Source of the DNA: a virus
Taxonomy: Duplodnaviria; Caudoviricetes
Length of the DNA stretch: 64,000 nucleotides
IMG/VR virus record: IMGVR_UViG_3300033066_001466
Coordinates: 10,720-74,719 of that record
Direction: 5' to 3' (one strand)
The notes under the pieces are model-generated. The model was given only the letters and a program-made list of their open reading frames with translations, was not told the origin of the DNA and made no database searches. Positions 3,506-55,039 of the stretch are shown here, piece after piece (the stretch's first letter is position 1; every line of letters starts with the position of its first letter). Position numbers and translations under genes: made by a program.

Positions 3506-3551
3506 CGGAGTATATACATGGTAGACCAATAGTTTTTATGGATTAACCATG
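3506..3551 (+). promoter_or_regulatory. putative phage late promoter CGGAGTATA plus hairpin covering the start codon
   Basis: CGGAGTATA at 3506-3514; CATGGT(3517-3522) pairs with ACCATG(3546-3551). Confidence 0.6.
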
Positions 3552-4385
3552 TCAAAATTAAGTGACCAACAAAAAATTGATTTAGTTCAAGAGTATACTA
3601 CACAAATAGTTACTGCTACAGATTTAGCTAATAAATATGGAGTTTCTTTAACATCTATTTCTAGCATTTTGAAAAATAGAGGAATAAAAAGAAGAATTCC
3701 ACGAAAATATCCATTTAATGAACAATATTTTGATGTTGTCGATAATGAAGATAAAGCATATATATTAGGATTTTTGTATGCGGATGGCTGTAATTATGAA
3801 AAAAGAGGCTCAATAATAGTAGCCTTACAAGAGACTGATGCTGAAATACTTAATCTTATAAAAGAAAAAATAGGTCTTAAAAAACCTCTTATGTTAAGAG
3901 ATAGGTCTAAAGACAAAGACTCAAATAAAAGGAAAAATCAATTAGCTTTAGAGATTTGCAGTAGACATTTTTCTAATTCTTTAGTACAATTAGGTTGTTT
4001 TCAAGCTAAGTCCTTAGTATTGAATTTTCCAACCAAAGAACAAGTACCAAGTCATCTTATGAGTCATTTTATGAGAGGGTATTTCGATGGTGATGCAAAT
4101 TTTCTCAAATATGAACATAAAGATAGAAATTGTCAAAACTATAAAATAAGTTTCGGGTCCAGTAACATATTTTGTAAATCTTTTGCTGATTTTATAAAGG
4201 AAAATTTTAATATTCATACATCAATTTATCATCCAAAAGACAAACATGAATTATATGACACAGTTATGATAAGTGGAAGGATTCAATGTAAAAAAGTTTT
4301 AGACTGGGTCTATAAAGACGCAACAATATACCTTAAAAGAAAATACGATAAATATCTAGAAATTTTCGGTGAACAAAATGGCTAA
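3549..4385 (+). CDS. free-standing LAGLIDADG homing endonuclease with N-terminal HTH
   Basis: AYILGFLYADGC and HFMRGYFDGD motifs; paralog of 21262..22296. Confidence 0.85.
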   Translation: MSKLSDQQKIDLVQEYTTQIVTATDLANKYGVSLTSISSILKNRGIKRRIPRKYPFNEQYFDVVDNEDKAYILGFLYADGCNYEKRGSIIVALQETDAEILNLIKEKIGLKKPLMLRDRSKDKDSNKRKNQLALEICSRHFSNSLVQLGCFQAKSLVLNFPTKEQVPSHLMSHFMRGYFDGDANFLKYEHKDRNCQNYKISFGSSNIFCKSFADFIKENFNIHTSIYHPKDKHELYDTVMISGRIQCKKVLDWVYKDATIYLKRKYDKYLEIFGEQNG

Positions 4386-5838: not shown

Positions 5839-6299
5839 CTAAATTGGAGAAAAAGCTTGAAACTAGATTGGCCGAAAAAAAGTTATCTTTTAAAGCTGAA
5901 GATTCAGAAATAGATGAAATTTTTTCTTTGTGTGTTGAAGATTTGGGCAGATTGCCTCAACAAAAATTAGCTGAATATTCCTTCATTTTGTCACGATACA
6001 ATGTTTACTTAGCTAAAGAGCTTAATAAGGAACGCTCTGCACGAAACTGGGCCAAACGTAGTCTTGACTATATTGTGCTTCCTGTTTTGTCCAATTATCG
6101 TATTAATGGCTCATATATGTCAAATGATGAAGTACGAATTATAGCAATTAAAGATAATGATGTAGCTATTAAATTCCATGCGTATTTTGCCGAAAAAGAC
6201 CAAAATGTAGACTTGCTATCTGACCTATCTTATGATATAAGGAAGATGGCCGATTCGCTTACCGAAATTTCAAAATCTAAGAGGTATAACAATGGCTAA
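5805..6299 (+). CDS. hypothetical helical protein (possible recombination mediator, by position only)
   Basis: SD GGAGG; lies between recA and dnaB. Confidence 0.55.
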   Translation: MAEQTSVADKIAKLEKKLETRLAEKKLSFKAEDSEIDEIFSLCVEDLGRLPQQKLAEYSFILSRYNVYLAKELNKERSARNWAKRSLDYIVLPVLSNYRINGSYMSNDEVRIIAIKDNDVAIKFHAYFAEKDQNVDLLSDLSYDIRKMADSLTEISKSKRYNNG

Positions 6300-6681
6300 A
6301 AGAGGCCGACCCGCCAAAGTGGTAGAAAGTAATGAAGAAAAAGCTATTAAATTGATTACTGAGAATCCAGCAATTTTAGAAGCAGTTCTTAAGCTAACGC
6401 AGTCTAAAATAGCTCAACATCAAATTAATAAACGTGTCTATAAGCCCGATAAGCCCCAAGTTATGTTTGATGACCCCGCAATTGGCAAAGCTGAGGGAGA
6501 TTGGGATAAGAAAAGATATCCCAAGGGGAAATTTGTACCAAAAGAAAGATTTAAACCCGTAGAAAAGGTTTTGGTTCAATGTAATAAGTGCGGGAGAGCA
6601 GAATATGTCACGGGCGAAATATATGGGGACGAATTCAGTTACACATGCCTTAACTGCGCTCGACATAGGCAGTCAGATTGA
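6292..6681 (+). CDS. hypothetical protein with C-terminal Zn ribbon
   Basis: CNKC...CLNC. Confidence 0.6.
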   Translation: MAKRGRPAKVVESNEEKAIKLITENPAILEAVLKLTQSKIAQHQINKRVYKPDKPQVMFDDPAIGKAEGDWDKKRYPKGKFVPKERFKPVEKVLVQCNKCGRAEYVTGEIYGDEFSYTCLNCARHRQSD

Positions 6682-11086: not shown

Positions 11087-11788
11087 ATGCGAAAAAAGAA
11101 ACCTGTTATTAGCGGTTGGCAAAAAGATTTTATCAGATTAGCTTTTCCATATCATTCTGCACAAGATATAGCTGATATTCTAGGTGTACAAAGACACATT
11201 GTTAGAGAATTTGCACAGCCTGAAAAATTACAAAAAGAATCTCCTTATCTTGAGAATGGAAGAAAAATAAATAAATTAACTGTTTTAGAATTATTACCGA
11301 CTAGAGGTAAAAAGAATTTATTATATAAATGTCAATGCGATTGTGGGAAAATAGTTAATGTTAGAAGCTCTTTAATTAAGAAGGGCGGAACTAAAGCTTG
11401 TAATAGATGTTATGGAAAACAGTCTAGAATAGATTCATACGCATATAAAGATACTAATAAAGCAGTTTGGTCAAGAATGATGTCACATGCTTATGAAAGA
11501 GGAATAGAATTTAATATCAAAATAGAAGATTTATATGAAATGTTAATAAAACAAGATAAAAAATGTAAATTCAGTGGTTTACCAATAAGTTTAGATTGTA
11601 ATTCTAATGGAGATAAAAGGACAGCATCTTTAGACAGAATAGATAAAAATAAACCATATGAAAAAGGAAATGTACAGTGGGTTCATAAAAAAATCAATTT
11701 CATGAAAAATTCACTATCTGACGAAGAATTTCTTGAGATGTGTAAACTTGTTGTAGAAAATCAGAATAAGGCCGAAAAAGACAAATAA
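11087..11788 (+). CDS. free-standing HNH-like homing endonuclease
   Basis: CQCDCGK, CKFSG, ASLDRID...GNVQWVHKKINFMK. Confidence 0.8.
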   Translation: MRKKKPVISGWQKDFIRLAFPYHSAQDIADILGVQRHIVREFAQPEKLQKESPYLENGRKINKLTVLELLPTRGKKNLLYKCQCDCGKIVNVRSSLIKKGGTKACNRCYGKQSRIDSYAYKDTNKAVWSRMMSHAYERGIEFNIKIEDLYEMLIKQDKKCKFSGLPISLDCNSNGDKRTASLDRIDKNKPYEKGNVQWVHKKINFMKNSLSDEEFLEMCKLVVENQNKAEKDK

Positions 11789-12522: not shown

Positions 12523-13212
12523 ATGTTTTTTAAGACGTTTTTAAATGAAGAGAAAACAAAAGAATTCTTTGGATATTATCCAGTTGGACTATCTAGAGGT
12601 TCAAATAAAAAAGTGGTGTGTGAATGCACCAGTTGTAAAAAATTAATTATAAGGTCATATAAAAATTATCATATGGACCATCAGTGTTCTGTAGTTAGAG
12701 ATGGTAAAAAAAGATGTTTTAAATGCTTAGAATGGAAAGAATTTAAATTTTTTAATAAAAACTCTACTCTATCTGGTAAAGTTTCAAAAATGTGTAAGGA
12801 ATGTTTTAGGAATTATAAGCCAGTAATAAAATATGAAGTTAGTAGGTCAACAAGATTGAGTTCTTCTCTTGATTCTGGAGATATAGAATTTTATCTAAAG
12901 AGAAGAATTCCATGTTTAAAGTCAAATGCTAAAAAAAAGAAACTTGAATATGATTTAGACTATGAGTACTTACTAACACTATGGAATAATCAGAAGGGAA
13001 TATGTTATTATACTGGACTAGAAATGAAAAATGATATGAAACAAAAAAAATATCAAGCTTGGAACTCTCCATCGTTAGATAAATTAAACCCAAGTAAAGG
13101 CTATACAAAAGGTAATGTAGTTTGGTGTATAAGCTCTGTTAACTCTTTTAAACAATCATTGACAGAAGAACAATTTCTAGAAATGCTTAAACAAATAGTA
13201 TGGAAACAATAG
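12523..13212 (+). CDS. free-standing HNH-like homing endonuclease
   Basis: CxxC pairs, CYYTG, SPSLDKLNPSKGYTKGNVVWC..VNSFK. Confidence 0.8.
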   Translation: MFFKTFLNEEKTKEFFGYYPVGLSRGSNKKVVCECTSCKKLIIRSYKNYHMDHQCSVVRDGKKRCFKCLEWKEFKFFNKNSTLSGKVSKMCKECFRNYKPVIKYEVSRSTRLSSSLDSGDIEFYLKRRIPCLKSNAKKKKLEYDLDYEYLLTLWNNQKGICYYTGLEMKNDMKQKKYQAWNSPSLDKLNPSKGYTKGNVVWCISSVNSFKQSLTEEQFLEMLKQIVWKQ

Positions 13213-20556: not shown

Positions 20557-21284
20557 GCCGGAAACCCCGACCAAAAAAACTTCCTAAAGCCAACGAACTA
20601 TATAAAGTCACAAATGAGCAAAATAATAAAATATTTATTACCCCAAAACTTGAAGCTAAAACTGAAAGCCAAAAAGAGTGTATCAGACTAATTAAAGAAA
20701 AAGACATTATTTTTATAGGTGGAGCAGCAGGAGTAGGAAAATCTTGGATAACAGTAGCATATGGGCTTTTGGCTGTTATTAGAGGCGAATTTGATAAATT
20801 AATTTTAGTAAGGCCAGCCGTTACAACTGAAGAAATCGGATTCCTCAGTGGTGACTTAGATGCTAAAACCTTGCCCTTTATGGAATCCGTTCTCTATATT
20901 GTTAATAAGTTCTTAACAAAAGAACAGTTTGCTGCTATGAAAAAAGAGGATAAGATAGAAATTAAGTCTATGGCTTACATTAGAGGTGTAACGTGTGACC
21001 GAGCTTTCATTGTGGTAGATGAAGCTCAAAATTTGAATCATAAAGCTATGAAGCTTATTGTAACAAGAATTGGAGAAGGAAGCAAGTTAGTAATTCAGGG
21101 AGATACAGAACAGAGTGATTTAAAATCTTATGAAAAAGGTTCTTTGGAGTCACATATTGAGTTATTTAGGGATTTTCATCCTAAGTTTGGCTCATTTCAA
21201 TTCAAAGAAGAAGACATTGTAAGAAATCCTTTAATTACAATATATCTCAACAGGTTGAAAAATGCAGAAAATAAAAACCAATAG
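20553..21284 (+). CDS. phoH: PhoH-family ATPase
   Basis: GAAGVGKS, RPAV, IGFLSG, YIRG, DEAQN, RIGEGSK, GDTEQSDL, DIVRNPL. Confidence 0.92.
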   Translation: MSRKPRPKKLPKANELYKVTNEQNNKIFITPKLEAKTESQKECIRLIKEKDIIFIGGAAGVGKSWITVAYGLLAVIRGEFDKLILVRPAVTTEEIGFLSGDLDAKTLPFMESVLYIVNKFLTKEQFAAMKKEDKIEIKSMAYIRGVTCDRAFIVVDEAQNLNHKAMKLIVTRIGEGSKLVIQGDTEQSDLKSYEKGSLESHIELFRDFHPKFGSFQFKEEDIVRNPLITIYLNRLKNAENKNQ

Positions 21285-22296
21285 TGGCCCTAAAAAACTT
21301 CCACAGAAAGAAATTATAGAAAAATACAAAATAGGCTTTAATAAAGCCGAAATAGCTAAAGAATATAACTCAACCAAACAGGCTATACACTATATATTAG
21401 TCAAGCATAAAATTTTAGTAAAAAACAAAAGAATTTACGAACACAAATTAACCTGTGAAGAAGAATCCGAGTTTCTAAGAAGGTATTTGAATAATCATGA
21501 ATCTGCCAAAAAACTTTGTAAAGAATTTAAAATTTCAGAACTAAATGGCTCTAAGTTTCTTAATAGAAATGGTATTTTTCCACAAAAACAAAAAAGAAGT
21601 TATAGAAAATATACGCTAAACGAACATTATTTTGATTCTATAGATACAGAAGATAAAGCTTATTTCCTTGGATTGTTATATGCAGATGGTTTTAATGGCG
21701 AAGATTCTGGAGAGATAGAGATTAGTTTAAAAGATAAAGATATTAAAATTTTAGAAAAAATGAACAATAGCATAGGTTCAAATAAGCCAATAAAATATAG
21801 AAGTATTACCAACAAAAATGGCTTGACAGGACGTTATGCTAGATTATGGATTCATAGTAAAATAATGTCAAAAAGATTAGCTGAATTAGGATGTTGGCAA
21901 AGAAAAAGTTTAACTTTAGAATTTCCAAAAAAAGAAACAATTCCAACTAAATTGATACCTCATTTTGTTAGGGGATTTTTTGATGGAAATGCATATATAT
22001 CAAAAGCTTATAAGGTATATTCTGCTGAAGTTATATCTACAGAGATGTTTTTAACTAAGCTTAGAGATATACTAACCGAAGAATTAGATATAAAAGGAAG
22101 TTTTCAAGCTCATCAAAATGGTAAAAATAAAATCTTAAAAATTGGTGGAACAATTCAAACTTTAAAATTTCTTGACTGGCTCTACAAAGATGCTACTATC
22201 TATTTAGATAGAAAATACGATAGATATCAAATGCTCAAAAAGGATAGACAGAAATATGCAGATTCAAGGAATTCACAGGTCTCTAGCGAAAAGTAA
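21262..22296 (+). CDS. free-standing LAGLIDADG homing endonuclease with two HTH-like N-terminal segments
   Basis: AYFLGLLYADGF and HFVRGFFDGN. Confidence 0.85.
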   Translation: MQKIKTNSGPKKLPQKEIIEKYKIGFNKAEIAKEYNSTKQAIHYILVKHKILVKNKRIYEHKLTCEEESEFLRRYLNNHESAKKLCKEFKISELNGSKFLNRNGIFPQKQKRSYRKYTLNEHYFDSIDTEDKAYFLGLLYADGFNGEDSGEIEISLKDKDIKILEKMNNSIGSNKPIKYRSITNKNGLTGRYARLWIHSKIMSKRLAELGCWQRKSLTLEFPKKETIPTKLIPHFVRGFFDGNAYISKAYKVYSAEVISTEMFLTKLRDILTEELDIKGSFQAHQNGKNKILKIGGTIQTLKFLDWLYKDATIYLDRKYDRYQMLKKDRQKYADSRNSQVSSEK

Positions 22297-41906: not shown

Positions 41907-42254
41907 TTATCGTGGTTTTACATCAAAGACGTAATTATAATTAATTTCGCCAGTTTCAGGGTCAATACGAGTGTTACAACTCGACTGACTCTTATAAGTA
42001 TTTTTTGTTACCGTAAATTTCCTAAATTCCCTGTCAATTACTCTACTTTGTTCATTACCACAGTCTAACACCGCATTTCGTGTTGGCAACCATAACCTTA
42101 AAAAATTCTTTTCGCTGTCAGTCAAAGTATATCTATCTTTATTATGGCCCCATAAATATCCAAAGCTTTTTTCAAATTGAGCTATAGCTCCAATAAACGT
42201 AGTTCGTATAGCCCGATTAACGTTAGAGTTTAAATTATCATTGTTTTTGTTCAT
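41907..42254 (-). CDS. hypothetical protein (tail module)
   Basis: 115 aa. Confidence 0.6.
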   Translation of the reverse strand: MNKNNDNLNSNVNRAIRTTFIGAIAQFEKSFGYLWGHNKDRYTLTDSEKNFLRLWLPTRNAVLDCGNEQSRVIDREFRKFTVTKNTYKSQSSCNTRIDPETGEINYNYVFDVKPR

Positions 42255-43210
42255 TTTACCCCAAATCCTTGTCCAAGAGATTGTTCAGTATGTTCGCTAA
42301 GTTTACCTTTATCTATCAAATTTTGTTTTGCTTTAATATAAGCCTTACCACCAGCATTATTAGCATTATAGACTACGTCATTCATTTTTGCCCCGCCCAT
42401 AATATAGACTTCTTGAGAACCAGCAACAGCCGATGAATGAATCTTACCTTCGACATAATTAACTGATTCAGATTTAGCTCCTTTTCTACTTTGTAAGATA
42501 TACCAACCATCTAATGCTAAATCATCCTCTATAATCCAATCAAAAGGTTTCTCTGAATGCTCTAATACGTTTTTATAGAAGCGATACCAATACATCAAAG
42601 TTGTTTGTTCGTCGGTTAATGGGTAATTTTGGAACAAAGAAGAAGTACATGTGTTTAAATTAAAGAAAGTATTTGAGCGGGCAATTTGACGAAAAATTGT
42701 CTCACTAATAGAGTTTTTTGATAACCACATCATAATAGATTCTAATTCACTATCCGATACGCTCTTCTTTATAGACTTACGTAGTAAATATCTTGATTTA
42801 ATCATTTCCGCTACGCCTTCGGCGGTAATACTATCCATGAAGTGAAGTTTTGATAATATAGATATAAGATTATTGTCTAAGTCTTCCAGTTTTTTTCTTA
42901 CAGACGAAGTCTGCTTTTTTTCTTTAAATATCTCATATAATTCTACCTTAGCATCCTCAATATCCTTACGTCCTTTTTCTAGTAATTCCTTATAATTAAA
43001 GGGTAATTTATATCTAAATAATTTAAGTTCAAACTCTTGGCTTGTTTTTGAAATACAACCGTCCTCTAAGCATTCGGCCAATACATCCTCATATAAGCAC
43101 TCAGCTAAATATTTGTGCTCATATTTGATAGGATTTATTATGTAAGTTTGGGCCGGTTTTGCTATAATTTTGCCGGACATTATCCTATAAAAGATTTTAT
43201 TATTTATCAT
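42251..43210 (-). CDS. hypothetical protein (possible second tail chaperone)
   Basis: 319 aa, between tail tube and tape measure. Confidence 0.55.
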   Translation of the reverse strand: MINNKIFYRIMSGKIIAKPAQTYIINPIKYEHKYLAECLYEDVLAECLEDGCISKTSQEFELKLFRYKLPFNYKELLEKGRKDIEDAKVELYEIFKEKKQTSSVRKKLEDLDNNLISILSKLHFMDSITAEGVAEMIKSRYLLRKSIKKSVSDSELESIMMWLSKNSISETIFRQIARSNTFFNLNTCTSSLFQNYPLTDEQTTLMYWYRFYKNVLEHSEKPFDWIIEDDLALDGWYILQSRKGAKSESVNYVEGKIHSSAVAGSQEVYIMGGAKMNDVVYNANNAGGKAYIKAKQNLIDKGKLSEHTEQSLGQGFGVK

Positions 43211-43382
43211 CTACTTCCTGTTTATCCTTATAAGTAATTGTCCCACCCATTTTAATTTCCTGAACTCATGTCACAACATGCTCCTCTTTAAATCCTGTAA
43301 AATTTTCACCAGGAGCAATTACAATTTGCTGCATATGAAAAGTTATTCTATTGCTAGGTGTGCTAACCTTTATTTTTTCCAT
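43200..43382 (-). pseudogene. 60-codon mini-paralog of the tail-tube N-terminus with one in-frame TGA (43266-43268)
   Basis: SNRITFHMQQIVIAPGENFTGFKEEHVVT*VQEIKMGG aligns to tube SNRVIFNAEQLLIAPGLNFTAFASGHVVHGAQSVGMNG. Confidence 0.75.
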
Positions 43383-43386
43383 ATAA

Positions 43387-43980
43387 CTAGGCCCATTTAT
43401 CCCAATATAGTGGTGACTCTTGTTTAGTTTGATTTCTTTGACAATTTGAAATTTCATGACACCACTGAATAAATTCTTCGTGTGGTTTATTACCTTTTGT
43501 AAATTGCAAATCCTTATGAATCCATTGAACATTTCCTTCGATATATCCTTTTGTACTATCAATTCTATCTAAAGATGCAGTTTGATTAATTCTATTTTTC
43601 TTATAACTTCTAGTAAATTGTAATGGTCTTCCAGAATAAGCACATTTTCCATTTTGTTTCTTAAATATATTATCAACGTATTCTAGACTTACTGCGAATT
43701 CCATATTTCTTTCCTTAATGGCTTTTCCTTTTATTCCATTATAATACCTGCAAGTTACACTTCCAAATGGGCAATATTCAACCATCCTACATTTAATACA
43801 CTGATTATTATTTCTACAATTTTCTGGAGTTTTTTGATAAATATTTTTACACTTTGGACATTTTACATTAACTAAACTTTTCCAATTAATTATTTTACTA
43901 GTTTTAGTTGTGACTTTTTCTGTCCATGCTTCCACAACTTCCCAACCATTAATAATTTGTCCAATTTTAAATTTTGTCAT
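43387..43980 (-). CDS. free-standing HNH-like homing endonuclease
   Basis: CPKC, CAYSG, ASLDRIDSTKGYIEGNVQWIHK; ATG 43980 has SD AAGGA (ORF track start 44007). Confidence 0.8.
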   Translation of the reverse strand: MTKFKIGQIINGWEVVEAWTEKVTTKTSKIINWKSLVNVKCPKCKNIYQKTPENCRNNNQCIKCRMVEYCPFGSVTCRYYNGIKGKAIKERNMEFAVSLEYVDNIFKKQNGKCAYSGRPLQFTRSYKKNRINQTASLDRIDSTKGYIEGNVQWIHKDLQFTKGNKPHEEFIQWCHEISNCQRNQTKQESPLYWDKWA

Positions 43981-43999
43981 TACCATATCCTTAAAATTA

Positions 44000-44016
44000 G
44001 GGGCCAAAATAGCCCC
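44000..44016 (-). terminator. possible terminator after the tail tube gene
   Basis: GGGGC-7nt-GCCCC then TAATTTT; short stem. Confidence 0.4.
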
Positions 44017-44054: not shown

Positions 44055-45233
44055 TTAATTGTAATATGAGCCACTTCCAATTCCGCTTGTAATAGTGTAT
44101 CCATTTTGTCCAGCCCCGAAACGAGGGTCTGCGGGGTGAAGAACGGAAAAATTATTCTTATTGGTATAGGTATAAGTTACAGTCATATTGCTACCATCCG
44201 TGCCGCCCCCACCCACGCTAAAAGAAGTCAACCGATTTTTAGTACCAGTTGAAATTCTTGTACCATCTCGAAGAGCAACTCTGATGGATTCATTTCGAGT
44301 ATTTTCACCAGTCGAATACAAACCACCTTCAAGAGCTTCAATAAAGTCACCACTAACTGCCATAATCTCAATTTCAGTATTACAGTCGATGGTAGGATTA
44401 ACTGATTTTACATAGGGGAATTTACAGCCCAACTCGAAAATATCTTGACGAGTAATACCAGCAGTGAATTTAATCGACTGCATTTTGACTGTATAGTCAC
44501 AACCACTTACTCCCGCAGTAGAAACATTTTTACCATTAGAATCAATGCCAGGAATATTTCGTGGGAAAGTACTGCCAGAAGGATAAACTGGTAATCCGTT
44601 AGCATCATTACCAATAGAAGCAGTTACATAATCGAATAAAACATCTTCACGACGATTAATGCCCGAAGCAGCAGAAGGAGCGTCAGGAGTAGTGAAATTA
44701 GTGCCCGTGAAAAACCCAGTCAACATATTAAATGCTGAAGCTTCAGAAGCACGATAGGCCGAAGAATACCACTTACGAGTATTACCTACGAAAGATAGAG
44801 ATTCTCGGCTAGGGCCTTGAGTATTAATTTGATAAGAAAGATTGGTAGGATAGAAGCCGCTCATCAAGCAAGCAAAATCAGCAGTGCCTGAAGCATAAGC
44901 TTGAGTTTCTGGATAAATTGACATACCAAGATGACATCGTGCAGTAGACCGACCTAAAAGGTCAGGAGTAGAAGCGTCTTTAGTAGCTAAGTGCCAAGCT
45001 AAAGGATATCCGTCCAATACCTTATCTACAGAGACTGTGAAATCAGAAATTTCTTCCATCTGTTCATATGGAGTTGCCTGACCTAGCTCATAAATGCTAG
45101 TGATAGGAACGTTACCATTCATACCAACAGATTGAGCACCATGAACTACGTGACCACTAGCAAAAGCAGTGAAATTTAGGCCCGGAGCAATCAAAAGTTG
45201 TTCAGCATTAAAAATTACGCGATTAGATGCCAT
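44055..45233 (-). CDS. major tail (tube) protein
   Basis: Own late-promoter motif and SD GGAG; between neck genes and chaperones/tape measure; beta-rich; IYELGQ motif. Confidence 0.65.
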   Translation of the reverse strand: MASNRVIFNAEQLLIAPGLNFTAFASGHVVHGAQSVGMNGNVPITSIYELGQATPYEQMEEISDFTVSVDKVLDGYPLAWHLATKDASTPDLLGRSTARCHLGMSIYPETQAYASGTADFACLMSGFYPTNLSYQINTQGPSRESLSFVGNTRKWYSSAYRASEASAFNMLTGFFTGTNFTTPDAPSAASGINRREDVLFDYVTASIGNDANGLPVYPSGSTFPRNIPGIDSNGKNVSTAGVSGCDYTVKMQSIKFTAGITRQDIFELGCKFPYVKSVNPTIDCNTEIEIMAVSGDFIEALEGGLYSTGENTRNESIRVALRDGTRISTGTKNRLTSFSVGGGGTDGSNMTVTYTYTNKNNFSVLHPADPRFGAGQNGYTITSGIGSGSYYN

Positions 45234-45250
45234 CTATTAACTCCAAATAT

Positions 45251-45275
45251 GAGTGTACAATAAATATATACGCCG
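45251..45275 (-). promoter_or_regulatory. putative late promoter CGGCGTATA with downstream TGTACA
   Basis: Intergenic, upstream of the tube gene. Confidence 0.7.
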
Positions 45276-50564: not shown

Positions 50565-51440
50565 AATTTCTTCTCCGTTTACAATAGGTATATACGCCGA
50601 ATTAATTTCGGTTTCAAAAATATCTTCACTTTTTACATAATTTTGTGAAGCAAAAGCTAACGAATCTTTACTAAAAATAACAGAAGCTGGATTAGCAGGG
50701 TCATCAGTGATACCTTTACCCGTGAATACAATATCACGCATTAGCATACCAATTTTAGCCCCTTGATATTCTCCGCTTCCTTTAAAAGCTCGTAATTTTT
50801 TGGTTAAAAATGAACTCTTTGCATCTCTTTTAATAATTTCTTGTTTGCCATCAGCTTTCATAACCGCATAGTCAAAATCAGAAAAAATACATTCCATACT
50901 AACGCATAGTTCACCATCAATAATTTTATCATATACTTTTTGTATAGATGCTGAATATTCTTCGTTTAGCTTCTGATATGCTTTAATATTGTATTTATAA
51001 AAACTGTCTACTGTAAGCAAATGAAAAATATCTGGTATGTCCATATTGGGCTTACCATCAATTTCACTAGGAATTAAAGCAGGAGTTTCTTCGTCTGTGA
51101 TTGCAAATACACGATTTGTATGGCCAACTACTTTATCTGGCTTATGGTCAAGATTTGCTGGTTTATTAAGAGGAGTATATTTTGCTTTCCAAACTTCAAA
51201 TTTATCAAATACTTGGTCATTCTTATTCCAAACACCAGCCGTTACTAAAATGGCCGGATATTCATATAAAAAGTCGTCCTCAATTAATTTACCAACTACT
51301 CCGCTAACATTTTTTACCTTACCAACATAATTCTTGTTTGTGGCAAGTATTACTGGGATATTATAGGTAATGGATAAATTGGCCCCAAAATACTGTTCGA
51401 GACCATCGTCTATCTCAGTTTGATAGATAATAGGTTTCAT
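49911..51440 (-). CDS. prohead protease fused to coiled-coil scaffold
   Basis: NLDH..VVGH, VSMEC, DPANPAS, then about 215 aa of Ala/Lys/Glu coiled coil. Confidence 0.75.
   Translation of the reverse strand: MKPIIYQTEIDDGLEQYFGANLSITYNIPVILATNKNYVGKVKNVSGVVGKLIEDDFLYEYPAILVTAGVWNKNDQVFDKFEVWKAKYTPLNKPANLDHKPDKVVGHTNRVFAITDEETPALIPSEIDGKPNMDIPDIFHLLTVDSFYKYNIKAYQKLNEEYSASIQKVYDKIIDGELCVSMECIFSDFDYAVMKADGKQEIIKRDAKSSFLTKKLRAFKGSGEYQGAKIGMLMRDIVFTGKGITDDPANPASVIFSKDSLAFASQNYVKSEDIFETEINSAYIPIVNGEEIMKLEEAQAKITELEGQLVEAKKIADELAKTKTEVETAKTESDKVKAELASANESIKKVTDEKVALEQKLAESNKSLAEANTKVASTEKDLSVAKAEKLKLERVGLIKENLGMDNTDAEKNYIVVAALTDENFKAWLDNTKAFAASKDKTTEAQKAELAKAAKDVEDQNKAEAAKKLEDAKKSEKTLVVANVEVENKNKTKLNAVKSVFAKVKNTETN
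50591..50599 (-). promoter_or_regulatory. internal putative late promoter CGGCGTATA
   Basis: Exact motif 26 nt before the internal ATG. Confidence 0.6.
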
Positions 51441-51742: not shown

Positions 51743-51900
51743 ACCTAAAATCGAAGAACGGCGTGATTACTTCTTCAAATAAATTTGAAAACTTTTAGGC
51801 CTTCGCCAAAGACTGTAATCCCAGTCTCATAATATTTATACTTGCGTTCAAGTCTCTATTGATTGAGAGTCCACAATTACATTGATAAAGCAATTGCTTT
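51743..51900 (-). ncRNA. TnpB omega RNA, 3' part plus guide (5' end undetermined)
   Basis: Terminal hairpin TTCAAAT-TT-ATTTGAA, end AAGTAATCAC at 51763, predicted guide GCCGTTCTTCGATTTTAGGT. Confidence 0.5.
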
Positions 51901-52923
51901 AATGGAATTTCATTTAAAACACCACATCTTGAACAAGTTTTCGATGTATTTTGAGGCTCTACAAGTACAACTGTTTTGCCAGCACTTTCAGCCTTGCAAA
52001 CTGTTTTCTGTACTAATCTACCCCAACACGCATCTTCAATAGCTTTATTGATTTGACGAATTTCTTCTTTGGTCATCGTCTTTTTTTCTAATTTTTCAAA
52101 ACAAATAATATCATATTTTTTAACTAGCTCTAAAGATTGTTTATTTGTAAAATCTTCCCTAGAGTTCACCATTTTTTCGTAGACCAAACTAAGGGAGTGT
52201 CGATTTTTCTCTGTTTTATTATTAGAATATCGTCTTGAAAGTTTTTCAATAGATTTACCGAATTTCTTGATAAATCTAGGATTTTCAATAGTCTTTTTAT
52301 TAGAAAGAGTAGCTAAAACTCTAATCCCTAAATCTACACCAATCGTCTTATGAGTTTTCTTAATCTTTTTATTTACAGAAGAATCAGTTGTAATACAAAC
52401 AAAAAATTTATTAGATGAATTTTTAATAATAGAGAGCGACTTAACTTTTCCTAATAATAATTTATGAAATTTACATTTAATGTTTCCAATTTTGGAAAAG
52501 TCTATATGACCTTTACCTATTTTGAGTCCACCATTTATTTTATAGCCTAACTGTGTATATTTAAGAGACCTTAAACGGCCACTACCTTTAAATCGTGGAT
52601 ATTTGCTATGTTTAGCAAAAAACAAACTAAAAGCACAATCTACTTGCTCCTGTGTTTTTTGAGCAACTTGAGCATATGGTTCCTTAAACAATGGATTTTC
52701 TTGTTTCCAAAAGGTAAGCATCCTATTAAGAGTAAATAACGTAAGATTTATTTTAGCTTCTTTATAAGCGTTTATTTTAACTTCTAATGTTTTATTGTAG
52801 ATTTGTCTACAAATTTCCAAGTGATTAGCAATAATTTTTGCTTGTTTTTTTGTAGGATACAATCTATACTTATAAGATATCATACTAATATTATACGCCA
52901 CAGTGTATACGAAAAAATCTATA
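51763..52923 (-). mobile_element. non-autonomous IS200/IS605-family (IS1341-like) element, tnpB only
   Basis: Right end ...TCAC with hairpin; no tnpA; left end short and uncertain. Confidence 0.65.
51795..52901 (-). CDS. tnpB: RNA-guided endonuclease TnpB (start probably ATG 52883)
   Basis: YKYRLYPT HTH, GVDLGI, CFEKL, CSRCG..CNCG, RDLNASINI; D-E-D triad intact. Confidence 0.92.
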   Translation of the reverse strand: MAYNISMISYKYRLYPTKKQAKIIANHLEICRQIYNKTLEVKINAYKEAKINLTLFTLNRMLTFWKQENPLFKEPYAQVAQKTQEQVDCAFSLFFAKHSKYPRFKGSGRLRSLKYTQLGYKINGGLKIGKGHIDFSKIGNIKCKFHKLLLGKVKSLSIIKNSSNKFFVCITTDSSVNKKIKKTHKTIGVDLGIRVLATLSNKKTIENPRFIKKFGKSIEKLSRRYSNNKTEKNRHSLSLVYEKMVNSREDFTNKQSLELVKKYDIICFEKLEKKTMTKEEIRQINKAIEDACWGRLVQKTVCKAESAGKTVVLVEPQNTSKTCSRCGVLNEIPLKQLLYQCNCGLSINRDLNASINIMRLGLQSLAKA

Positions 52924-52928
52924 ATTGA

Positions 52929-54995
52929 TTAATTTTCGTATTTTTCTGTACAAATATCTCTTTGAAGCATTCTTTGCTCTTCAATGTTAGGCATTCTATT
53001 AAAATGAGTTACAGCCAAAGCAAATAATTCGCTGTATCTATTAGAGACTTCTTCGGGTAAAGTATGAGAAAGACCATTTAGATTAAGTTCTTCTATCTTT
53101 TCGCCGAATTTTGCATTATAGAGATAGCCAAAAACTTCTTTTTCTAGGTCTTCTGTGGCCGCAGTTGATAATTGACGGTAATTCTTTTTGCCCGAATTTT
53201 GCAAATATTTAGCCAATACTAATTCATGTATCTTTGATTGGGCGTTTGTATACCATAGATTAGCCATAGCTGAACGAGGCTTAACTGTACGCTTTTTTCG
53301 GCCATTACTATCTTTAGAGTTTTTAGGGCGACCTTGTCCGGGTTGACCTTTAGGCCTTTTGGCGGGAGCAGCTTTAGGTGAAGGACTAACAATCTTCATA
53401 ATTTGCTTGTCAGTCATTGAACTATCTACCCCAACATCGCTAGGTTTTACTATACCTTTGGTTAAAGCAATTTTATTTAGCTCAGCTTGATTATTTTGAT
53501 GGAATGGACCAGCTTTTGGTGGAATATCATTCTTGGCATTTTGTTGTCGATTTTGTTTCTTAACTCTGTAAGCCTCAATTTCTGGACTAGTATTAAATAA
53601 TCTACGAACTTCTTTTTCGGAAATAACGTTTCTATCACATAAATCACGAACTAAAGCCATCATCTGAGACTTATCAGTAATTGATATTTCGTCAAAAAAT
53701 GTTTCTGGTGGAACTCCAGGAAAACCCATAGCTTTATGAACTAATTTAAATTCTCCATTCCAAAAATCTTTAAGAATATTTCTTACATAATTCAATCGTT
53801 CGACCATTGTCTTTAGGCCAAAATAACTATTATTAAAACCACCATTGTCGTCTACGGTTCGAGGAACTCCTAACCCCTGATAAATAGCATTTAGTGGGGC
53901 ACGATACTTATCATTGTTAAGAAATTGCCATGCATCCTTAGAAAGTTCCTCTACGGAGATTGCTGCGTTCCAAATTACATCAGCAACGCCTCCGCTAGGA
54001 ATAGCTCCAAGAATATCAACCAGTTTTTCATAAGCTCCTTCGTCTGGAAAAATAGAAAATTCTTTATCTAGGTAGCCAATTTTCCATAAACGAATTCTAG
54101 ACGCAATACTATCTAAAGTAGTTTTGTCGGCCAGCCTTGTTTTATCATAATGAATAAGGTCATCAAAAATTGAAGCATGAACTGGTTCACCCCAAACTTC
54201 AAAATCATCCTTTTTATAATGATAAATAGAGGTATGGTATGGGTCTAATGGAATTTTATTATCGCCCGCACGTAAGGCTTTAGCAATATCGGGAGGAAAT
54301 TCTTTTATAAATTCTTCTCGTTGTTTTTTTGTCATCTTCTGAGCCATTTTTATTAATTCTTCAGGCATATCTACATAATAATTTAATTTGCCCAAAAATA
54401 AAGATATTCGCTCATTCGGCATAGTGATAGAAAGAGGATTTAAAAAGCTATATCCAATTGGAATTTCTGATTTTACATATTCTACTTCGGGAAAATCTTG
54501 GTCAGCAGCAAGACCTAAATTAATTTCTTTTAGTTGTTTTTTGGTAACTTTTGTAAAACTACGATGAATTGGAGTTACGCCCGCTTTGAATAAAAGTCTA
54601 GAAAACTGCTCATTTACTTGATAAGAACCCACTTTTTGAAGCCAATTCTTATAAAAATCTTCAATTATTTCACTTTTATGAGGCACTACCATACCATTTG
54701 CGGCGAATTCTGCCATCGTATCAAACGTGTTTTTAACGATAGGATTTGTCTTATAGTAACACATTCCCATCGCCATTAAACCTTTTGGCGTGGTTGGAAG
54801 TTGTTCTGACGGTCTGAACTGATAATAGGAATTTTCTGTAGATGTATTACGGACAGAAATATCAGAAACAATATTCCTATACTGCATAAAATCAGCTTGT
54901 GCGCGATTTCCTCTAAAAACTGGATTAGGAGTATTTTTTACGCTAGCATTTGCAAGCAGTTGTAAGTCTTTTTGCTTAGGTGCAATTTTGGGCAT
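52929..54995 (-). CDS. portal protein
   Basis: 688 aa directly after TerL; YYKTNPIV, FLNP, HYKKDDFEVWGEP pattern. Confidence 0.75.
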   Translation of the reverse strand: MPKIAPKQKDLQLLANASVKNTPNPVFRGNRAQADFMQYRNIVSDISVRNTSTENSYYQFRPSEQLPTTPKGLMAMGMCYYKTNPIVKNTFDTMAEFAANGMVVPHKSEIIEDFYKNWLQKVGSYQVNEQFSRLLFKAGVTPIHRSFTKVTKKQLKEINLGLAADQDFPEVEYVKSEIPIGYSFLNPLSITMPNERISLFLGKLNYYVDMPEELIKMAQKMTKKQREEFIKEFPPDIAKALRAGDNKIPLDPYHTSIYHYKKDDFEVWGEPVHASIFDDLIHYDKTRLADKTTLDSIASRIRLWKIGYLDKEFSIFPDEGAYEKLVDILGAIPSGGVADVIWNAAISVEELSKDAWQFLNNDKYRAPLNAIYQGLGVPRTVDDNGGFNNSYFGLKTMVERLNYVRNILKDFWNGEFKLVHKAMGFPGVPPETFFDEISITDKSQMMALVRDLCDRNVISEKEVRRLFNTSPEIEAYRVKKQNRQQNAKNDIPPKAGPFHQNNQAELNKIALTKGIVKPSDVGVDSSMTDKQIMKIVSPSPKAAPAKRPKGQPGQGRPKNSKDSNGRKKRTVKPRSAMANLWYTNAQSKIHELVLAKYLQNSGKKNYRQLSTAATEDLEKEVFGYLYNAKFGEKIEELNLNGLSHTLPEEVSNRYSELFALAVTHFNRMPNIEEQRMLQRDICTEKYEN

Positions 54996-55030: not shown

Positions 55031-55039
55031 TATACTCCG
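55031..55039 (-). promoter_or_regulatory. putative late promoter CGGAGTATA (portal)
   Basis: Intergenic. Confidence 0.7.

Follow-up and report, generated by a model that had tools for sequence, protein, structure and literature searches.

Small genes resembling the N-terminus of the tail tube protein in a group of tailed phages, with a truncated member next to an HNH endonuclease gene

The major tail proteins of the phages P74-26 (gp93), T5 (pb6) and SH-Ab15497 have in common a fold with two tandem tube domains, which is also that of P0002, the tube protein of the phage described here. As with the two-domain siphophage tubes, the gene of this protein lies upstream of a tape measure gene encoding approximately 2000 residues. 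However, no separate small gene for the tube N-terminus has been reported in P74-26, T5 or SH-Ab15497, unlike in the clade to which the present phage belongs, and in the part of the literature that was searched there is no description of a small gene copying the N-terminus of a tail tube protein. Truncated paralogues that act as dominant-negative regulators are known as microproteins, a concept that comes from plant and animal transcription factors. The proteins described below resemble them in being short and in being derived from that segment of a larger, self-assembling protein through which it interacts, the rest of which is missing. Microproteins are expected to form non-productive contacts with their parent, and the small phage proteins might do the same; in the present case, however, the parent is a structural component of the virion, and the copy found in the DNA under study is truncated.

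In P74-26, the tube of which is the closest structural relative, the N-terminus of the tube protein is autoinhibitory, in that it blocks a socket in the monomers, and makes intra-ring contacts, and N-terminus and Loop1 have been proposed by the authors of that study to control polymerisation (PMC10034513). The tail tube is also the target of sensing by defence systems, such as DSR2 (PMC10981675) and Avs16, which contacts the inter-ring beta-hairpin of the tube (bioRxiv 10.64898/2026.01.04.697583). With the DSR2/DSAD1 and Avs16 systems the present case shares a small accessory phage protein related to the protein that a sensor detects, although DSAD1 is not a tube fragment. Finally, free-standing homing endonucleases of the T4 Seg/Mob type (e.g. 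SegB, PMC13096335) are intergenic and present or absent. It is the HNH gene adjoining the small gene, a putative homing endonuclease gene, and not the small gene itself, that is similar to them, and the likeness includes a break in identity at its site and the use of the same site in three lineages.

The window, i.e. the whole stretch of 64,000 nucleotides that was analysed, belongs to an IMG/VR virus record of 74.7 kb, which by estimate is about half complete; the relatives are on contigs of up to 160-190 kb. The features of interest, among which the short frame is henceforth called the mini-gene, are arranged as follows:

42251..43210, minus strand: conserved gene for a 319-aa protein, located directly after the tube gene in relatives that lack the mini-gene
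43203..43265, minus strand: open continuation of the mini-gene frame after the TGA, 21 codons, with no Cys/His tail
43266..43268, minus strand: in-frame TGA, codon 39 of the mini-gene, opposite Gly32 of the tube family
43269..43382, minus strand: mini-gene, predicted translated part, 38 codons from the ATG at 43382, homologous to tube residues 3-31
43387..43986, minus strand: free-standing HNH endonuclease gene, probable ATG at 43986 behind AAGGAT
44000..44016, minus strand: terminator-like, G+C-rich hairpin 3' of the tube gene, then TAATTTT
44055..45233, minus strand: tail tube protein, 392 aa, two tandem tube domains, T5 pb6/P74-26 type; its residues 1-48 correspond to the mini-gene as its parent
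45267..45275, minus strand: promoter-like motif CGGCGTATA, 34 nt before the tube ATG

The 392-residue protein has no Pfam or PHROG match. Its AlphaFold2 (AF2) model, built with 24 homologues and with a pLDDT of 80, superimposes on the tubes of P74-26 (8ed0_A; Z 20.5, r.m.s.d. 3.3 over 288 residues, model residues 6..374), T5 (pb6, 9iny_A; Z 18.5) and SH-Ab15497 (Z 17.4), with Foldseek E values between 2e-10 and 1e-8 for the three; in it, a single chain forms two tube domains in tandem, of the Hcp-like beta-sandwich type. Furthermore, the gene is found in a tail module, upstream of the tape measure: three genes downstream there is a 1995-aa ORF, the orthologues of which in the relatives L003, L005, L006 and L092 belong to PF10145 (tape measure). 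Because of the structural matches and of this context, the label of tail tube protein, which had been given to the gene in a preliminary description made from the letters of the window, is right.

The motif CGGNGTATA is found 10 times in the window, whereas 0.6 copies would be expected (the sites include 45267..45275, 50591..50599 and 55031..55039, minus strand), is kept approximately 34 nt before the tube ATG in L003, L005, L006, L088 and L092, and is probably a phage-specific promoter. None of the 10 copies precedes the HNH gene or the mini-gene. A hairpin equivalent to that at 44000..44016 is found 3' of the tube gene in most of the close-clade relatives in which the intergenic region was read, L090/L091 having none.

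The preliminary description had drawn attention to a 60-codon frame with an internal TGA in the gap between the HNH gene and the ATG at 43210, and both its coordinates and its sequence are as reported there. When the TGA is read through, the resulting peptide (60 codons, 43382..43203) aligns without gaps with residues 3-42 of the tube protein, with 20 identities in 40 positions (BLASTP, E 3e-13); the 19 identities in 38 positions counted originally were found again on recount. The mini/tube pair was also recovered by a search of the whole virus record, and in a scan of all ORFs against the window it was the sole partial copy of a structural gene. Chance similarity, a concern of the preliminary description, is ruled out by these results. 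Comparison of the mini frame with the 5' end of the tube gene yields a saturated pS of 0.72-0.73 and a lower pN of 0.38-0.42, which indicates an old duplication held at the protein level, in keeping with the earlier remark that the similarity of the proteins exceeds that to be expected from a recent duplication of DNA. The read-through frame is closed by TAA TAA at 43202..43197, and its last 8 bases together with these stops overlap the start of the 319-aa gene. The 98-aa ORF listed in this region does mask the mini-gene: it shares the frame of the latter but opens further upstream, and crosses the 3' end of the HNH gene out of the HNH frame. Megablast of the region against GenBank phages gave no match.

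The TGA faces a glycine, as had been noticed, and this residue (Gly32) is invariant in the tube family; beyond it, the frame is still tube-like for approximately nine residues. A misread GGA had been considered at 43266-43268, but the stop is real. Indeed, the near-identical contig L003, which comes from another assembly and has a tube protein that is 99% identical, contains an identical mini frame with the same TGA, and the stretch 42900..43384 shows zero differences in contigs of runs from two different studies; with the TGA present in independent assemblies, an assembly error is not the explanation. Furthermore, since TGA terminates 6 of the 57 long frames in the window, it is an ordinary stop with no sign of recoding, and recoding was discarded as an explanation on this ground.

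The mini-gene belongs to a family, which is found in at least five related lineages in the slot between the tube hairpin and the 319-aa gene, the context of one member, P0127, not having been seen. The family was defined from the members in L006, L092, L100 and P0127. L006/L007 and L092/L093 have intact ORFs of 72 and 68 aa, respectively, at the same position as the window; that of L100, downstream of an HNH gene, is 78 aa long, or probably 74 from its second ATG; P0127, of 66 aa, emerged from a profile search of 1.84 billion proteins; and L003 has the same truncated copy as the window. The core of the preliminary description, i.e. that a small coding frame copying the tube N-terminus is conserved at the protein level, is supported, and it is extended by the intact orthologues of 66-78 aa, of which those with a known context are found at the same place.

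The intact proteins start with M-x-S/P-K-R-I/V-x-F, with the same spacing from Met1 as in the tube, and continue with the pattern Q..[IV]AP..F..F...H. Eight residues (R, F, Q, A, P, F, F and H) are invariant in the family. Six of them, namely R, F, Q, A, P and the first of the two paired F residues, are found unchanged in the tubes of the close clade, the second F is placed under the T of the N-F-T of the tubes in a mixed alignment, and the H corresponds to N in the tubes of L006 and L092, the small proteins having a charged x-K/E-x-H where the tubes have S-G-H/N. Homology to the tube extends to about tube residue 48; there, at one common column, the intact members switch to a [YF]-C-x-C ... 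H/C tail, which is absent from the tubes and is possibly a small metal-binding knuckle. An AGGAT ribosome site is found after the hairpin and before the intact mini-genes, and in L092 and L100 the stop codon overlaps the ATG of the next gene (TAATG).

Searches for further members or for a known domain gave little. Pfam and PHROG scans of the mini proteins yielded nothing above noise, and in the ESM Atlas there were only clusters without a name and, at 0.88, weak leads to zinc ribbons; a word-based protein search with the 72-aa member matched only the member itself; scans with degenerate patterns from the mini alignment returned the L006 genome again from metagenome contigs and none from IMG/VR. 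The source of the Cys tail was sought in the other frames of the tube gene and in neighbouring genes, and nothing significant was found.

The mini-gene is absent from L005, L088, L090/91, L094, L095/96, L097, L098 and L008, as well as from about 75 more distant loci, and carriers are interleaved with non-carriers in the tube tree. It is, therefore, a dispensable, accessory gene, given that close relatives do without it. Outside the family, L020, the tube of which is 37% identical, has a 58-aa ORF (6131..6307) directly after the tube terminator, with its own ribosome site and without a Cys tail, which resembles the N-terminus of the L020 tube itself (E 5.7e-4) and is a second case of such a gene, apparently of independent origin.

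How strongly the mini frame is constrained was estimated from six pairs of mini-genes, in all of which pN (0.35-0.47) is lower than pS (0.44-0.80). The corresponding omega is roughly 0.5-0.7 and is only indicative, because the alignments are short (37-45 codons) and synonymous sites are near saturation; that of the tube N-terminus itself is 0.06-0.26. The dN/dS comparison proposed in the preliminary description shows pN below pS throughout but an omega that is not clearly below 1, and suggests a weak constraint, compatible with near-neutrality. In a simulation of neutral drift at that divergence, in which only substitutions were allowed, a 72-codon frame with its start survived in 1-5% of cases per lineage, and four lineages are intact. 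The simulation, the excess of pS over pN, the conserved motifs and the translation signals, taken together, favour a functional small protein in the intact lineages.

In the window copy none of the eight invariant residues has been lost; within the family it is the closest to the tube, and it lies at the family position between the hairpin and the 319-aa gene. Its frame is interrupted by the TGA instead of being open over 66-78 codons, the [YF]-C-x-C tail is missing, with no Cys in the read-through frame, and, as in L003, the start is displaced from the Met1 spacing of the tube (M-x-x-K/N-R), being 7 codons further upstream (M-E-K-I-K-V-S-T-P-S-N-R). On the basis of the N-terminal extension, of the stop and of the missing tail, it is a divergent, probably decaying member of the family, which looks degenerate rather than like a polished functional allele, although it might conceivably still serve as a functional arm peptide of 38 residues. 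Metatranscriptome contigs, from a single run, cover only 42900..43173, which is part of the 319-aa gene.

The neighbouring HNH protein matches PHROG 3322 (E 7e-22) and PHROG 3118 (HNH endonuclease, E 2e-12), with no Pfam match at 0.01, and its mechanically defined ORF extends to a TTG at 44007, inside the hairpin. The gene is inserted exactly at the ribosome site and start of the mini-gene, with the repeat ATATGG at both junctions. In L003, which is without it, a 60-nt spacer containing the hairpin and AAGGAT runs straight into the mini-gene ATG; in the window AAGGAT-ATGG now starts the HNH gene, which has in this way taken over the ribosome site of the mini-gene, and the mini-gene ATG follows 5 nt after the HNH stop. 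Runs X1 and X3 contain the forms with and without HNH together (joint 43384>44055 with 60 other letters), with an identical mini frame, so that near-identical genomes differ in whether the HNH gene occupies this site. Upstream, with the tube gene included, window and L003 share 94.3% identity (62 mostly third-position differences), and from the mini-gene ATG on they share 99.4%. Such a break at the HNH site is the pattern expected from co-conversion of the flank during homing, and the boundary of a mosaic is here clearly marked by what appears to be a homing-type insertion. A homologous HNH gene is found at the same site in L005, which has no mini-gene, and in L100, where it is 64% identical and precedes an intact mini-gene; in L003, L006/7 and L092/93 the mini-gene is present without any HNH. 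From the occurrence of each gene without the other and from the coexisting alleles it follows that the HNH gene is an independent newcomer, a putative mobile homing-type endonuclease that was inserted later and is unrelated to the mini-gene. The window contains three paralogous HNH genes (11087..11788, 12523..13212 and 43387..44007), with identities of 40% and 28-30% over about 90-100 residues.

The reading that is preferred here, tentatively and with a chance that is close to even without quite reaching it, is that the mini-genes are an accessory family, derived from duplicated tube codons of approximately 1-48, whose products mimic the tube N-terminal arm in trans, with a decaying copy in the window and an HNH gene that has nothing to do with them. 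The family would have been founded by duplication of the first 48 or so codons of the tube gene without the tube promoter. Acting in trans, the product would resemble the N-terminal arm and first strands of the tube and could dock on tube subunits or rings where the N-terminal segment of a neighbour normally sits, thereby restraining or capping tube polymerisation. Given the lack of a CGGNGTATA motif before the mini-gene and the terminator-like hairpin, its expression would come only from read-through of the hairpin, at a low level and below that of the tube. In the allele with HNH, the mobile gene has landed at the start of the mini-gene and deprived it of its ribosome site. Among the roles considered in the preliminary description, that of a mimic of the tube N-terminal arm appears the most plausible function.

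The structural offset to P74-26, in which model residue 6 corresponds to chain residue 1, would place the inter-ring Loop1 hairpin beyond the copied stretch, so that the mimic would extend over the N-arm and initial strands and no further. When the L006 tube (alignment A4) was co-folded with the mini family (alignment A5), the score was 0.00, which, controls not having been run, counts neither for nor against binding, and the AF2 model of the mini family alone has a pLDDT of 57 and no usable fold. A more specific version, possible but doubtful, sees in the small protein a microprotein made of the phage's own tube N-arm and a Cys/His knuckle, which would work in trans as a capper or brake, or as a decoy for a sensor, and would have arisen at least two times, in the clade of the window and in L020. 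In general terms, the small gene can be described as a truncated paralogue, of the microprotein kind, that adjoins a hot spot for homing endonucleases.

That the mini-gene is instead a dead relic in every lineage, i.e. a recombination scar or partial tandem duplication of the tube 5' end without function, in which open frames are due to chance or to the signals of the next gene, is rather unlikely, although several observations would suit it: the patchy distribution with sister lineages lacking the gene, an omega that stays near 0.5-0.7, the stop and missing tail of the window copy and a locus that is a hot spot of recombination and insertion. However, a relic would hardly have kept intact frames of 66-78 codons in four lineages at synonymous saturation, in view of the neutral survival simulated for each, nor would it be expected to preserve the spacing of the start, a ribosome site of its own, the overlap of stop and start, the eight invariant residues and a common C-x-C tail; L020 provides a second case that looks independent. 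The translation signals lend themselves also to a leader ORF, a translated spacer coupling ribosomes from the site near the hairpin to the 319-aa gene and largely indifferent to its amino-acid sequence, since the stop of the mini-gene overlaps or abuts the start of that gene in L092, L100 and the window read-through frame, and in mini-less relatives the 319-aa gene is immediately preceded by the same AGGAT site. It is improbable, as a mere spacer would not be expected to conserve eight residues of tube type, the spacing at the N-terminus and the arrangement of Cys residues when divergence has reached saturation; furthermore, in the window the TGA lies 55 nt before the next start and the 319-aa gene has an AGGAAG site of its own.

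The mini-gene could also display a tube epitope to a host sensor, such as DSR2 or an Avs16-type STAND protein, and occupy it without activating it. Tube-sensing defences of this kind do exist, and an accessory, patchy and fast-evolving gene in a moron-like slot after a terminator hairpin would suit such a role. Nonetheless, such a decoy is quite unlikely and a weaker alternative than the arm mimic, because the copied residues 1-48 probably do not include the long inter-ring hairpin and a fragment of the trigger might equally activate the sensor. Scarcely credible, finally, is a link to the HNH gene, with which the fragment would have arrived as a piece of a foreign tube gene or as a recoded decoy of the HNH target, both of which the preliminary description had entertained. 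The two genes adjoin in the window and in L100, and the break in identity between window and L003 falls exactly at the HNH site; yet the co-occurrence test that had been proposed reveals no linkage, with the mini-gene alone in L003, L006/7 and L092/93 and HNH alone in L005, and an identical mini frame is found in alleles with and without HNH within the same samples. Indeed, the 99.4% identity to L003 from the mini-gene ATG on, against 94.3% on the tube side, assigns the mini-gene to the resident segment and not to the incoming one.

If the intact members act on the tube, as the arm-mimic reading holds, they would represent a phage-encoded, self-derived regulator of tail tube polymerisation, of which no described example was found, and a peptide of approximately 45 residues would offer a simple means of studying what the tube N-terminus does; this segment is said to emerge from structural studies of P74-26, lambda and SPP1 as an element of assembly control. 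An action on host sensors would make them anti-defence decoys of a new type. For the annotation of the window, the frame is to be entered as a truncated member of the family, and the HNH gene as a separate, mobile insertion marking a break due to recombination.

Other mobile or duplicated genes were seen in the course of the analysis. In L004 (739..1869) and L088 (1176..2288) a LAGLIDADG-like gene, with a weak or faint Pfam match and absent from the window, follows a gene of 334 aa, probably that of the major capsid protein, as another slot for mobile endonucleases in the structural module. In the window, a transposase/TnpB-like gene (51795..52901; PHROG 506, E 4e-84) separates the portal gene (52929..54995) from the structural genes that come after it, and the genes at 3549..4385 and 21262..22296 form a paralogous pair, with 38% identity over about 270 residues.
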